Below are positions 28,701 to 34,700 of a stretch of DNA of 64,000 nt, one piece after another. Within the stretch, counting starts at the first letter, position 1, and each line of letters begins with the position of its first letter. The DNA comes from Methylobacterium sp. EM32. GTDB taxonomy: Bacteria; Pseudomonadota; Alphaproteobacteria; Rhizobiales; Beijerinckiaceae. A program made the translations under genes and the position numbers. The notes under the pieces are model-generated. The model did not search any database and was not told the DNA's origin. It saw nothing but the letters and a program-made list of their open reading frames with translations. The DNA is taken from positions 1 to 64,000 of the forward strand of contig NZ_JBEXZS010000136.1 in NCBI RefSeq assembly GCF_040593685.1, given 5' to 3'.

Positions 28701-31700
28701 AGGATGCCGAGGAGGCCGAGGGGAATCGACCGCGACCGCTCGACGAGGAGGCCGATGCAGCGGTCGGGCGCGGCGCCGCGGGCAAGCAGGTGCCGCGCCA
28801 GGCGCTCCGAATCCCGGTCGAGGTCGGCATAGGTGACGTCTCCGCCCGCGTCGGTGACGGCTTTGCGGCTCCCGTGGCGGGCCGCCACCGCCGCGAAGGC
28901 CGAGACCAGCGTCAGAGTCCGGGGATACTCGGCGATCGTGCTCGCCCGCACCAGCAGGGCGGCGCGCTCGCCCGGCAGCATCAGGTCGAGGTCGGCGAGC
29001 GGCCGGTCCGGGGCCGCCAGTGCGGCGGCGAGGAGCTGCGCGAAGCGGTCGTGGATGCGCCGGCCGGTCTCTTGGTCGAACAGGTCGCGGTTGAAGACGA
29101 GGCGCGTCGTCGCTTCCTTGTCCCCGCCCGCGACCGACAGGACGAGGTCGTACTTGCCCCAGCCGAGGCCGGTCTCGACCGGCTCCCACGCTCCGGCCTC
29201 CGGCTCGGCATAGTGGAACAGCACGTCGAACAGGGCCGTGCGGCTCATGTCGTTGCGCGGCTTCACCGCCAGCACGATCCGGTCGAAGGGGAGCGCGCCC
29301 TGCGCCCGGGCGGCGGCCGCCTCGCCGGCGCGGCGCCGGACGAGGTCGGCGAAGCTCTCGGCCCCGTCGACGCGCAGGCGCAGGGGCAGGAGGTTGGTCG
29401 CCGGCCCGACGACCTCCCGGGCAGCGTCCGGGCGCCAGGTCTCGCCGACGATCACGTCGTCCTGGCCCGACAGGCGGTGCAGCAGGGCGTGGTAGCCGGC
29501 GCCGAGGATGTCGGCGCGGGTCACCCCCAGCGCCTCGGCGAGGCGGTCGATCCCGGCCAGCGCGAGGGTGCCGCCGGTCGCGCCCGCCGTGTAGGTGTGG
29601 ATCGCCGGGCGCGGCCGGTCGGTCGGCAGCACCAGGGCGGCGACGCCGGCGAGCCGGTCGCGCCAGGCGGCGGCCTGCGCCGGATCGGCGGAGTCGCGCT
29701 CGCGGGCGGCCCAGGCCTTGAAGCCGGGGGCGGGCGGCAGGGATCCTTGCGGGTCCCGGTACAGGGTCTCCAGCTCGCGCAACAGCCGCGCGAGGGAGGC
29801 CGGATCGGCGAGCGCGTGATGGACGGTGAGCGCGAGCCACTGCGCCGTGTCAGAATTCGTCTCGCGGCACAGGGTCAGCCGGGCGAGCGGCGCCTCGCCA
29901 AGATCGAAGGAGACGCGGCTCGCCTCCTCCAGGGCGGCAAGCGCGGTCCCGGGCGCGGCCTCGATCAGCGTCACCGGCGGCACGGCGCCGGCGTGGGAGA
30001 TCACGACCGGACGCTCGTCGCGGGTGGCGATCGCGCTGCGCAGGACCGGGTGCCGGGCCGCCAAGCGGGCGGCGGCCTCGGCGAGACGGGCGGGGTCGAG
30101 CCCGTCCGCGACCCGGACGATCGCCGGCATGTTGTAGTAGGTCGGGCCGGCCGGATAGAGCACGCCGCGCTCGAAGCGGTCGACGAACCAGAGCCGTTCC
30201 TGGTGCGGGGTCGGCGCCTCCGGGCCGTCCGCGGCCTCGCCACCGGCGATGGCCTTGACCGGCGCCTCCGGATCGGCGGCGGCCGCCGTCATCAGCCGGA
30301 CGAGGCGCTCCATCAGCGCCGCGATGCGCGCACGCGTGAACAGGTCGGTGTTGTAGGTCGCCTTGATGCGCAGGGACGCATCCGCGCATTCGGTGACGTA
30401 GAGGGTGAGGTCGAACTGCGCCGTCGGCGTGTCGATCTCCTCCAGGCCAAAGCCCGACGCGCCGAGCACCCGGCCGATCCCGTCGCGGTCGTCCATCACC
30501 ACCACGATCTCGAAGAGCGGGTTGCGCGACGGATCGCGGGGGAGACCCAAGGCCTCGACGACCCGGTCGAGGGGCGTGTCGCCGTGGGCGAGCGCCCCCA
30601 TCAGGGCGTCGCGGGCCGTCCCCAGCACGGCGGTGAAGCCGGCCTCGGGATCGAGAACGGCCCTGAGCGCCAGGGTGTTGACGAAGAAGCCGATCTGGTC
30701 GGCGAGTGCCGGGTGGTCGCGCCCGGCCGTCACGGTGCCGAGCACGATGTCGCGGCTCCCGGTCTCGACCCAGACGAGGCCGTAGAGCGCCGCGACGGTG
30801 CCCGCGAAGGCGCTTGCGCCGTGAATGGCCGCCAGCGCCTTCAGCGCCGCCGCCGTCGCGACCGGGACGTCCACGGTGACGTGGTCGCCCGCGAAGGTCT
30901 TGACCGCCGGGCGCGGGTGATCGGGGCGCAATTCCGTGCGCGGCGCGCCGGCGAGCCGCCCGGTCCAGTATGCGAGGTGGGAATCGGGCCGGGACGCCGC
31001 CCAGGCGGCGTAGTCGCGGTATTGCAGCGGCAGAGCCGGCAGGCGGTCCGGCACCCCGCGCATGGCCGCGCCGTAGAGCGCCAGGACGTCGCGGACGAGG
31101 ATTCCGAGGGACCACACGTCGCTGATTGCGTGGTGGATCAGGACGACGAGGCGGTCGCCGTCCGCGGCGCCGCGCAGCCACGCCGCCCGCCACAGGGGCG
31201 CGGCCGCGAGGTCGAACGGCTCGGCGGCGAGCGCCCGCATCCGCCCGGCGATCGCCTCGGGGTCGAGGCCGGCGACGTCCTCCTCGTGCAGCACGAGGAG
31301 CGGCTCGGGCAGCACGGTCTGGACCGGCAGGCCGTCGCGCTCGGTGAGCGCGGTGCGCAGGCTCTCGTGGCGCGAGCCCAAACGGTGCAGGGCCGCGCGC
31401 AGGGCGGTAGCGTCGAGGGGCGCCGGGCTGCAGAGCGCGAAGCCGATCGTGTAGGCGGTCAGGCCCGGATCGATCCGGTCCAGCATCCACAGCCGGGCCT
31501 GGGCGTTCGAGGCCGGGACCGGGCCGGGCCCGGAATGGCGCGGGATCGGGGCGCGGCCGGCGCCGCGGTCGAGCCGGGCGGCGAGGCCCGCCACGGTCGG
31601 GGCCTCGAAGAACGCCCGCAGGCTGACGCTGCGGCCCGTCTCCCGCTCGATGCGGGCGAGCATCGCCAGCGCCTTCAGGCTGTGGCCGCCGAGATCGAAG

Positions 31701-34700
31701 AAGCTGTCGGTGGCGCCGACCGCGTCGAGGCCGAGCAGGTCGGCCCAGATCCGGGCGATGCGGGTCTCGTCCTCGCCCCGCGGCGGCACGGCGGCGGCGG
31801 GCGCGGCCGGGATGGCGGCGAGCGCCGCGCGGTCCGGGCTGCCGTCGGCGCGCCGGGGGATGGCGTCCACCACCACGATCGCGTCGGGCCGGGCGGCGGG
31901 GACGAGGCGCAAAGCCGCGTAGGCGGCGAGCGCCCGCGGATCCGGCGCCGCCCCGCGGGCGGTCACGCAGGCGCGGCGGGAATGGTCATCCGCCACGACG
32001 ACGGCCTCGCGCAGGGCCGGATGCTCGGCGAGCACGGTCGCGGTGGCCTGGAGGTCGATCCAGCCGGCGCGGCCGCGGGCGAAGCGGTCGCGAGGCCCGA
32101 GATCCTCGATGCTCCCGTCGGCGCGCAGGCGCCCGAGCCGGCCGGTCGGGTGCCAGGCGCCGTCCCGGCGGATCTCGACCGGCGCCAGGACGCCGATGCC
32201 GGCCGGCGCCCCGAAGCCGTCGCGGGTGCGCGTCTCGCCGATCCGCCCTTGCGCGGCCACGTCCTCGGGCGAGAGGGACAAGCCGGCCAGCGGCGCGTCG
32301 GGATCGCGCAGGGCTGAATCGAGCAGGGCGAGGTAGCTCGCGAGCCAGCGCCGGGCGGTCGCGGCATCCGCGACCTCGCCGTCATAGTCGAGGTCGATCA
32401 GCGCCTCGCCGTTCAGCTCGAGGAGGTTGAGAAAAAGATCCTTCTTCGGATGCGCCACCGGCGGCGACAGCCAGGCGAGGGCGAGCCCGTCGAAGGCGAG
32501 GCGGAATCCGCGGTCGAGGTTGAACAGCACGGTGACGTCGGGGCCGCGCCGCCCGCCCGGCGTCAGGAGCGAGGCCGCCGCGCGCTGCTGGCCGGCCAGG
32601 GTCGCGCGCAGCTGCGCCACCAGGGCGGTGAAGGACGTCCCGGGCGACAGCGCCACCGTCACCGGCAGGATGGCGGAAGCCGGCCCGACCATCACCGGCA
32701 TCGCCGCCTCGGTGTGGCCGGCGACCGGCACCCCGATCGTGAGCCGGCGCTGGTCCGACAGGCGCCCGAGCAGCAGGGCGTAGGCCCCGAGCAGGACCGT
32801 GAACGGGCTGACGCCCTGCCCTTGCGCGAAACGCTTCGCCCGGCCGTAGAGGTCGGCCTCCGCGCCGGTCAGGCGCCGGTGGATGCGCCCGCCCCGGAAG
32901 CTGGCGCGCCGCGGGCCGGGCGGCGCCGGCAGCAGCACCGGCTCGGCCGCGTCGAAGGAGGTCTCGTCCGCCGCCTGCCGCCGGCTCCAGGCGACGAAGG
33001 CGCGAAACGAGGTCGCGGGCGGCAGGGCGGCGGGCCGGCCCTCCCGGGCGGCGGCGTAGAGCTCGGCGAGTTCCGTCGCCATCAGGCCGAGGGACCAGCC
33101 GTCGGCGACGATGTGGTGCACGGTGAGGGCGAGGACGTGCCGCTGCGCTCCCCGCCGCAGCAGCAGCGCGCGCAGGAGCGGGCCGTTTTCGAGGTCGAAC
33201 GGTGTGCCGAGGTCGCGGGCGAGCCGCGCCGTCACCGCCGCGTCGTCGTCGCTTACCGGCTCGGTCGTCAGGACCGGCGCCAGCGCCGCGGCGGAGTACC
33301 AGGCGCGGTCGTCGAGGCCGATGCAGCGCAGGGCCTCGTGGCGCTCCGCGAGCGCCCGCAGCGCGGCACCGAGCGCCGCCTCGTCGAGGGGACCGTCGAG
33401 GGCGAGCGCCACCATCTCGTTGTAGGCGAGGCTCGATTCCGGCCGCGCCTCGATCAGGGCACGCATCTCGCCCTGTCCGCGGGAGAGCGACAGATCCTCG
33501 ACCGGCGGGGTCTCGGCGAAATTCTCGGCTTGCTTCTCGACTTGCTTCTCGAGTTGGCGAGGCCGGCCGGTGCCGCGGGGCGGCAGCCAGCCGTCCGCGC
33601 GCATCGCCGCGAGGCCGCGGCGCACCGCCTCGACGATGTGGCGCAGGTCGGCCTCGTCATGGGCGGCCGAGAGGAAACAGTTGCGCCCCTCCCAGACGAA
33701 CACCCCCTCGTTGAGCAGGTGGTAGTTCAGGATCTCGGTGTCGCCGGAGAACTCGAACCGGAACAGCGAGCTGAACTGCACCATCCGGATCGGCACCTCC
33801 TCCTCCGCGAAGAGGGCGTTCAGCTCGGCGCAAAGGGCCATGGTGCGGGCGTTGAGGCGCTCCTGGAGCGCCGGGCCCTCGGATTCGAGGCGTGTCAGCA
33901 CCGCCTCGGCGGCGGCCATGGTCAGGGGGTGGTTGTTGAAGGTGCCGGCGACGAAGGCGGTGCGGGCGGTCGGCCCGCTGTCGTCGCCGTACTGCCAGTC
34001 GCCGCCGTCGACCGCGTCGAGGTAGTGGGCACGGCCGGACACGACGCCGATCGGCAGGCCCCCGCCGACGACCTTGCCGTAGGTGACGATGTCGGCCGTG
34101 ACGCCGAAATGCGCCTGCGCCCCGCCCGGATGGACGCGGAATCCCGTGATCGTCTCGTCGAAGATCAGCGCGGTGCCGGATTCGAGAGTCAGGGCCCGCA
34201 GGGCGTGCAGGAAGTCCCGCGGCTGGACGCTCGGATCGCGGCTCTGCACCGGCTCAACCACGATCGCCGCGAGGTCGGCGGCGTGGTGGCGCAGGGTGTC
34301 GAGCGCCTCGGGGTCGCCGTAGCGCAGCACGATCACGTCCTCGACCATGCCCTGGGGCGTGCCGTCGCTGACCGGCAGGGTGGTGGCGCGGGCGCCGTCG
34401 CTCCAGCCGCTCGCGAGCAGCCCGTCGAAGGTGCCGTGATACGAGTTGGTGAAGATCGCGATCCGGCGCCGGCCGGTCTTCGCCCGGGCGAGCCGCAGGG
34501 CCACCATCACGGCCTCGCTGCCGGTGGTGAAGAAGGCCACCCGCTCGACGCCGGTCATCCGGCGGATCAGCGCGGCGACGCGGCCGGCCCGGGCGGTCTG
34601 CGGACCGACCGGGTAGCCGGCGGCGATCTCCGCCTCCAGGGCGACGCGGACGAAATCCGGGTTGTGCCCGAACAGGGTGACGCCGAACCCCATGGTGATG

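Follow-up and report, generated by a model that had tools for sequence, protein, structure and literature searches.

What becomes of a nonribosomal peptide synthetase (NRPS) module in which a condensation (C) domain and a carrier (T) domain flank only a fragment of the adenylation (A) domain? This question is raised by a megasynthase of 4864 residues, the product of the largest open reading frame (ORF) in a 64,000-nucleotide stretch of DNA from Methylobacterium sp. EM32 (positions 1 to 64,000 of contig NZ_JBEXZS010000136.1; G+C content of about 72%). This whole stretch is referred to here as the window, and coordinates are window positions. The megasynthase ORF translates without stops, and its domains, mapped with Pfam and in-house hidden Markov models (HMMs), follow the order FAAL-ACP-KS-AT-ACP-AMT-C1-stub-T1-C2-C3-A2-T2-C4 (Table 1), where AMT is a class-III aminotransferase and the stub is the A-domain remnant. 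The initial portion—acyl-AMP ligase, ACP, KS, AT, ACP, class-III aminotransferase, and C domain in the Pfam map—has the domain order of an iturin-type lipo-initiation region; by analogy, its chemistry is expected to be that of a beta-amino fatty acyl chain, and the aminotransferase would supply the beta-amino acyl donor for C1. The answer that we consider likely is that C1-stub-T1, the first peptide-forming module of this lipopeptide synthetase, is a working NRPS elongation module whose own A domain is dead.

An earlier note on this DNA had described the region as a C-T module with only a degenerate, Asub-like (C-terminal subdomain of A domains) remnant, devoid of motifs A1 to A7, in an interval of some 180 residues. 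Most of this description holds. The motif of C1 lies at residue 2408 (window 33118), and the domain extends to about residue 2696, while T1 starts at about residue 2858, so that the gap is short indeed, although it measures about 160 residues rather than 180, compared with about 490 for a normal A domain such as A2. The interval matches the AMP-binding_C family PF13193 above the curated gathering cut-off (30.2 bits versus 24.5, E 9e-7), in agreement with the proposed resemblance to a C-terminal subdomain, and finds no match to the AMP-binding core (PF00501) even at E<=10. When compared by BLASTP with the intact A2 of the same protein, it aligns from A7 to A10 (35% identity, E 1e-10), and a profile of the remnant family aligns with a profile of ordinary A domains over 144 columns (hhalign probability 99.9%, E 4e-36). 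Together, these comparisons confirm that only a remnant of the A domain separates C1 from T1.

The profile alignment begins only at the hairpin before A6, where the strand pair RTRDGFGAPAGIGVLAPVEI is the counterpart of the VLDxxxxPxPxGxxGELxI hairpin bearing the start of A6 in an intact A core. After this hairpin, 25 normal A-domain positions (GxARGYLxRPxLTAERFxxxP...) are deleted, and the alignment resumes at A7 and continues through A10. About 345 of the roughly 490 A-domain residues (some 70%) are gone in two pieces, namely A1-A5 and the A6-A7 segment. The absence of A1 to A7 claimed earlier is correct for these two pieces, but the hairpin with the first half of A6 is still present, as is a vestigial A7, which reads HPTGR where YRSGD is expected and has lost its Asp. 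The A10 region reads PRRADGSPDR, without the catalytic Lys. A full set of motifs A1 to A10 was looked for in the interval and not found. A hidden or frameshifted A core was also considered and rejected, since C1 ends just four residues before the hairpin and leaves no room for it.

A model of the stub together with T1, built with AlphaFold2 (AF2) from six remnant-type sequences, reached a mean predicted local distance difference test score of 85.5, with block means of 82–96 over the stub. Its fold is predicted to be that of Asub, the best PDB matches (Foldseek) being the Asub-PCP parts of DhbF, SrfA-C, LgrA, and EntF (E 1e-17 to 1e-13). In this model, the hairpin that was kept forms a small sheet with the strands of A7-A8, located before the hinge, and it is plausible that the boundaries of the deletion are explained by the capacity of the remaining unit to fold by itself.

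The same arrangement is found in other genomes. An exhaustive representative search, whose ranking was dominated by giant NRPSs matching in many stretches, contained P0195 (4863 residues), which stood out only by matching in one full-length stretch; it shares the architecture and has 65% overall identity. The rest of the orthologues were recovered with the downstream asparagine synthase as the query and by exact-protein look-ups. Six more clusters were obtained through the asparagine synthase: a near-identical JGI metagenome contig (L085), the metagenome-assembled genome (MAG) of Rhizobiales bacterium 32-66-11 (L083), a Logan assembly (L088), Azospirillum sp. TSH100 (L084), Azospirillum agricola (L086), and Endothiovibrio diazotrophicus (L087). 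With the locus encoding P0195 (L081), they make seven besides the window, and three of the eight orthologues come from isolate genomes. The gene order megasynthase, asparagine synthase, NRPS-B, ABC transporter is common to all eight clusters. In each of them, C1-stub-T1 forms one contiguous alignment, in frame and of similar length, across eight assemblies and several genera, and no frameshift or stop was found within the module in any orthologue. The identical arrangement in seven other independent assemblies excludes an assembly error, and chance and a pseudogene were likewise rejected as explanations. The A-domain deletion retained in frame, as the earlier note had put it, is present in the eight clusters, and thereby dates to the common ancestor of the cluster family.

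In L083, gene calling splits the megasynthase into two genes, with an overlap inside C2 (at about 5114–5126 of that locus), which is probably a frameshift in the MAG assembly and not a real split. As for the other searches, the scan of genome contigs with C1-stub-T1 was swamped by the generic HHIVADGW and gave only ordinary NRPS loci of 25–37% identity, whose seemingly contiguous matches turned out by tblastn to be the Asub-T-C of normal modules. A megablast search of plasmid sequences with the megasynthase as the query brought up no close relative, the scan of metagenome contigs with stub-specific patterns found nothing, and a word-indexed search of proteins with nothing but the stub as the query gave a single weak match, all listed matches being shorter than 1200 residues.

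Conservation is distributed unevenly along the module. The C1 motif HHI[VI]ADGWS and the T1 motif FFDLGGHSLKAL are invariant in the eight orthologues; in the window, FFDLGGHS of T1 lies at residue 2880 (window 31702), and the codon of the phosphopantetheine-bearing Ser2886 at 31682–31684. The stub, flanked by these intact domains, has none of the catalytic motifs of an A domain, as in the modules referred to as dA or A* types: the A7 Asp position is occupied by Arg, Glu, or Gln in all eight orthologues, the A10 Lys position by Ser, Thr, or Ala (or it is absent from the aligned loop), and the A8 motif is unrecognisable across them. The working A2 keeps the A7 Asp, the A8 motif, and the A10 Lys, and its specificity code is kept across the orthologues. 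When the six more distant orthologues were compared with the window, the identity of the stub (42–62%) fell between that of true linkers (25–58%) and that of the catalytic domains (50–67% for C1–C4 and 60–81% for A2), T1 having 65–73%.

The ratio of nonsynonymous to synonymous substitution rates (dN/dS) was obtained for four orthologue pairs, where the stub was compared with the homologous part of A2 by a Fisher test. It amounted to 0.82 in the stub and 0.11 in A2 for the window and L085 (p 0.007), 0.66 and 0.26 for L084 and L086 (p 0.005), 0.43 and 0.14 for L083 and L088 (p 0.0002), and 0.40 and 0.27 for the window and L081 (p 0.29). In the same four pairs, C1 has values of 0.21–0.39, within a range of 0.2–0.5 for the other catalytic domains (AMT, C1–C4, and the A2 core), whereas T1 has 0.18–0.34 in the three more distant pairs and about 1 in the closest one, the latter on only 12 codon differences. 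Judged from these values, selection on the stub is clearly relaxed and yet still present, with both the reading frame and the length being kept.

Because A1-A5 (including the P-loop of A3 and the NxYGPTE of A5) are missing, and the Asp of A7 (Y-x-T/S-G-D) and the Lys of A10 (P-x-x-x-x-G-K) are replaced in all eight orthologues, the stub cannot adenylate, which upholds the earlier proposal that no amino acid can be activated here in cis. With its own A domain dead, and C1 and T1 conserved, T1 would have to be aminoacylated by another A domain. In the mechanism that we propose, FAAL-ACP-KS-AT-ACP-AMT would make a beta-amino fatty acyl thioester in the style of iturin and mycosubtilin, the A domain of another module would aminoacylate holo-T1, C1 would join the beta-amino acyl chain to the aminoacyl-T1, and the chain would then be handed on via C2/C3. 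The stub would persist as a folded spacer preserving the normal pairing between Asub and carrier, letting T1 reach the acceptor site of C1, the foreign A domain, and the donor site of C2.

Regarding the donor, a tblastn search with an A core found those of FAAL, A2, A3, and A4 (the last two in NRPS-B), and A5, which belongs to a C-A-T-TE gene, and no further one within the 64-kb window. No stand-alone A, A-T, MbtH, or shuttle (alpha/beta-hydrolase) gene is conserved beside the eight clusters over flanks of about 10 kb, and the dedicated partner gene typical of bacterial cases (a stand-alone A or A-T) was found neither in the four-gene set nor in the window. The flanks vary between genomes, and conservation is limited to the genes for the megasynthase, asparagine synthase, NRPS-B, and ABC transporter. 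Since no stand-alone A domain is conserved with the cluster, the gene content indicates that the donor of T1 is most likely an in-cluster A domain. We tentatively favour A2, which may load T1 as well as T2: it sits in the same polypeptide as T1, and the GGHSLKA common to T1 and T2, whose LK pair is found in 66 of 749 sampled carrier domains, is a hint in its direction. The probability that remains beyond A2 and an unlinked partner falls to A3 or A4.

Several points weigh against this interpretation. The choice of the donor is an argument from gene content, and GGHSLKA, which is also found in T5 of the unlinked C-A-T-TE gene, is weak evidence for A2. The orthologous clusters were seen with about 10 kb of flanking DNA on either side, and an unlinked partner is possible. 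The dN/dS values of the distant pairs are rough, with dS near saturation. The structural model is based on six sequences, and a confident prediction of the fold is no proof of a function for the stub. Moreover, the proposed mechanism explains neither the extra C domain of the C2-C3 tandem nor the conserved asparagine synthase.

An unlinked partner would be a stand-alone A domain or A-T didomain loading T1 in trans, with or without an aminoacyl shuttle, and would be akin to SyrB1/SyrC, Alb04, the partners in the ramoplanin and enduracidin systems, or KtzN. This is the commonest solution documented in bacteria (PMC8949500), the surplus C domain might reflect the docking of a further carrier protein in trans, and the view of the orthologous clusters extends over flanks of about 10 kb. 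However, the documented cases have the partner gene inside the cluster (PMC8949500), and none of the candidate genes listed above is conserved beside the eight clusters or occurs in the window, which makes such a partner a doubtful, albeit serious, possibility. A particular partner had been put forward in the earlier note, namely the C-A-T-TE protein, which is the only other NRPS in the window and has a carrier with GGHSLKA. The comparison does not support this proposal: the protein forms a full module, C and TE domains included, its gene lies 7.8 kb beyond the ABC transporter gene with unrelated genes in between, and the cluster does not have it as a neighbour in Azospirillum sp. TSH100, A. 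agricola, or Endothiovibrio (the cluster being followed by a type II thioesterase and an arginase in TSH100, and by a gene of the MFS in A. agricola). The same note had also contemplated that T1 itself accepts the beta-amino acyl chain. In this case, or if the module were skipped, T1 would never be aminoacylated and C1-stub-T1 would be a decaying relic, as the relaxed constraint on the stub, the surplus C domain, and the T1 value of about 1 in the closest pair (on its 12 differences) could suggest. Nevertheless, a C domain requires an amine acceptor on the downstream carrier, and the invariant HHxxxDG of C1 and Ser motif of T1 are what normal condensation onto an aminoacyl-T1 requires, making an acyl-carrying T1 unlikely. 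The low dN/dS of C1 in the four pairs (0.2–0.4, indicating purifying selection) and of T1 in the three more distant ones, together with a module free of frameshifts and stops in every orthologue, also argue against decay. A relic is very improbable on these grounds, and the C-A-T-TE protein as the source of the T1 amino acid is, if anything, slightly less probable still. Lastly, the predicted intact Asub fold would suit the C-terminal half of a split A domain that is completed by a separately encoded core, but the A10 Lys, the A8 motif, and the A7 Asp, on which the catalytic role of Asub is based, are lost or variable in all the orthologues, and there is no orphan A core in the window or beside the orthologous clusters. 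A split A domain is scarcely credible.

A working module loaded by a foreign A domain is not a new mechanism: truncated or inactive A domains complemented by another one are rare but already documented. For the initiation region, a close known system is MycA of the iturin and mycosubtilin type (acyl ligase-ACP-KS-ACP-AMT-C-A-T), which shares the activation of a fatty acid, one malonyl extension, the transamination to a beta-amino acid, and the condensation with the first amino acid. In MycA, that C domain is followed by an intact A domain that activates Asn, while the megasynthase described here has an acyltransferase in cis and a high-GC proteobacterial host. In the kutzneride system, KtzH is said to hold a truncated A* domain between C and T that is complemented in trans by the stand-alone KtzN. 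If so, this bacterial case would be one of the two closest analogues of the present module, the other being the SidD and Nps6 type described below; it would differ in the dedicated stand-alone A gene of the kutzneride cluster, none being conserved here.

Examples of A domains complementing truncated or inactive ones have been collected from several systems (PMC10192304, PMC8949500, bioRxiv 10.1101/560987). Among them, the fungal siderophore synthetases SidD and Nps6 hold C-dA-T modules whose A domain is inactive without its N-terminal part, and A1 of SidD loads both T1 and T2, past the truncated dA (PMC10192304). If A2 is the donor here, the likeness would extend to an A domain that serves the carrier of a neighbouring module in the same protein; however, about 290 residues are lost in dA, compared with about 345 in two pieces in this bacterial PKS-NRPS lipopeptide line, and the candidate A2 would act from downstream, with two C domains in between. 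Further modules that lack a working A domain come from syringomycin (SyrE/SyrB1/SyrC), albicidin (Alb04), cystobactamid, ramoplanin, and enduracidin (PMC8949500), where the carrier is similarly fed by another A or A-T unit. Module 9 of SyrE has no A remnant whatever, the A domain of albicidin is full-length but degenerate, and all of these examples have a dedicated partner gene in the cluster (PMC8949500). The thalassospiramide lines of Thalassospira and Tistrella are, like the present one, alphaproteobacterial hybrids with A-less modules and inter-module loading, A3 loading the upstream T1a, but they differ in chemistry and architecture, and no Asub-like stub is reported in the parts of that source consulted (bioRxiv 10.1101/560987). 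The module studied here is set apart from the known cases by its host, its place right after the PKS-aminotransferase unit, its two-piece deletion, and the lack of a dedicated partner gene, and the literature search found no paper on this cluster family.

Remnants of this kind are not restricted to the cluster family. C-remnant-T modules account for 10 of the 940 Asub-containing modules among the proteins that a search with the stub had gathered, a biased set, and for 1 of the 263 modules in 80 generic NRPS loci (in L002). Four non-orthologous remnants have the same hairpin, 25-residue gap, and Asub boundaries, without the A10 Lys: P0009 from Streptosporangium, P0060 from an Acidobacteriota MAG, and P0211 and P0181, which are large NRPSs. 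Each of them resembles ordinary A domains more closely than it does the remaining remnants, which points to independent truncations and not to one family, in a sample that is small and partly biased. Four more remnants (P0165, P0087, P0066, and L002 ORF +0_4340) start at or after A8 and also are without the A10 Lys, with P0087 and P0066 being C-remnant-T-reductase proteins of Streptomyces. In the C-remnant-T of P0215, both the A6-A7 segment and the A10 Lys are still present. That hairpin, hinge, and Asub have been selected as a minimal adaptor for carrier movement in A-less modules and, in addition, that the downstream A2 supplies T1 past two intervening C domains is a combination that we regard as unlikely; if true, the feeding of T1 by A2 would give a beta-amino-acyl-Thr-Thr start.

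These observations affect how such assembly lines are read. Collinear rules would skip a residue or stall at the C1-stub-T1 module, and for the prediction or engineering of lipopeptides from this Azospirillum/Rhizobiales cluster family, T1 should be counted as live and loaded by another A domain. The family of eight orthologues is also instructive on how far an A domain can be pared down in a module that keeps working, which bears on the design of minimal or A-less NRPS modules. If the recurrent boundaries of the deletion hold in an unbiased census, the minimal folding unit would consist of the hairpin, the hinge, and Asub.

Table 1. Features of the window discussed in the text (positions in nucleotides).
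Feature	Position	Strand	Basis or remark
Megasynthase ORF, 4864 aa	25745..40339	minus	Pfam and in-house HMM domain map
AMT, class-III aminotransferase, residues 1858-2215	33695..34768	minus	PF00202, E 7e-48
C1 condensation domain, residues 2278-2696	32252..33508	minus	HMM map; motif HHIVADGWS
A-domain remnant (stub), residues 2697-2842	31814..32251	minus	PF13193 match, hhalign, motif loss, AF2 model
Retained beta-hairpin of the stub	32150..32242	minus	hhalign alignment; strands predicted in AF2 model
T1 carrier, residues 2858-2926	31562..31768	minus	PF00550, E 2e-17
C2 condensation domain	30221..31534	minus	HMM domain map; HHAISDVWS
C3 condensation domain, in tandem with C2	28955..30184	minus	HMM domain map; HHALADPAS
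A2, intact adenylation domain	27443..28897	minus	Pfam; code extraction, DFWNVGMVHK (Thr-like)
T2 carrier	27185..27391	minus	Domain map; GGHSLKA as in T1
Asparagine synthase homologue, glutamine-hydrolysing	23875..25740	minus	PF00733/PF13537; TIGR01536, 441.6 bits versus cut-off 267; synteny
NRPS-B, A3-T3-C5-A4 (methyltransferase-interrupted)-T4-C6	16454..23878	minus	Start GTG 23878; orthologues of 2467-2495 aa
A3 of NRPS-B	22304..23803	minus	Code DVRHLALLAK
A4 of NRPS-B	18098..20587	minus	Code DAATIAAVC, aromatic-like
Methyltransferase domain within A4	~18839..19144		Within the C-terminal subdomain
C6 of NRPS-B	16469..17821	minus	End of NRPS-B
ABC transporter, fourth conserved cluster gene	14823..16670	minus	Synteny
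C-A-T-TE NRPS gene	2862..7001		A5 code DLTKLGHIGK, Asp-like

With regard to the remaining domains of the megasynthase, the tandem of C2 and C3 between T1 and A2 gives the line one more C domain than carriers. C2 has the motif HHxIxDVWS, and C3 has HHxxxD followed by Lys, Pro, or Arg in place of Gly; both keep HHxxxD in all the orthologues and resemble ordinary C domains in a sequence search of the PDB.

The asparagine synthase that follows the megasynthase in all eight clusters is full-length and begins with MCGIV (N-terminal Cys). For the copy in the window, the sole exact match is in the Logan assembly SRR25604369. Its start lies about 5 nucleotides past the stop of the megasynthase, and its own stop overlaps the start of NRPS-B. 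No Asn-like specificity code was found among the A domains of the cluster. The code of A3 in NRPS-B matches the Ser code DVWHLSLIDK at 6 of 10 positions, and the methyltransferase domain that interrupts A4 predicts a methylated residue in the product. NRPS-B ends in C6, its T4 reads GGDSIRA, and the four-gene cluster has no terminal TE or R domain; the product may be released by the terminal C6. In Azospirillum sp. TSH100, a stand-alone type II thioesterase lies 3' of the ABC transporter gene. The ORF at 16454–25738, listed as extending NRPS-B by 620 codons upstream of its GTG start, was rejected in that part (23879–25738) as a high-GC artefact without any Pfam match; the extension overlaps the asparagine synthase gene in another frame, and many such shadow ORFs are present in the ORF list.

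Beyond the ABC transporter gene, an ORF on the minus strand (10967–14473) encodes a domain of the beta-lactamase family (serine hydrolase) fused to an autotransporter beta-domain. Two other clusters, L083 and L085, have this fusion after the ABC transporter gene as well, and L084, L086, and L087 do not; it may be an accessory gene of the cluster, involved, for instance, in processing or resistance. At the other end of the window, the region 56000–60000 has a G+C content of 53–56%, compared with about 70% elsewhere, and its ORFs are without Pfam matches except for a ParA/CbiA-like ATPase (58127–59950), so that it may be a foreign insertion. Finally, a PAS/HWE histidine kinase with a receiver domain, which along with the autotransporter and the relatives recovered suggests an alphaproteobacterial host, is encoded at 450–2747 on the minus strand.

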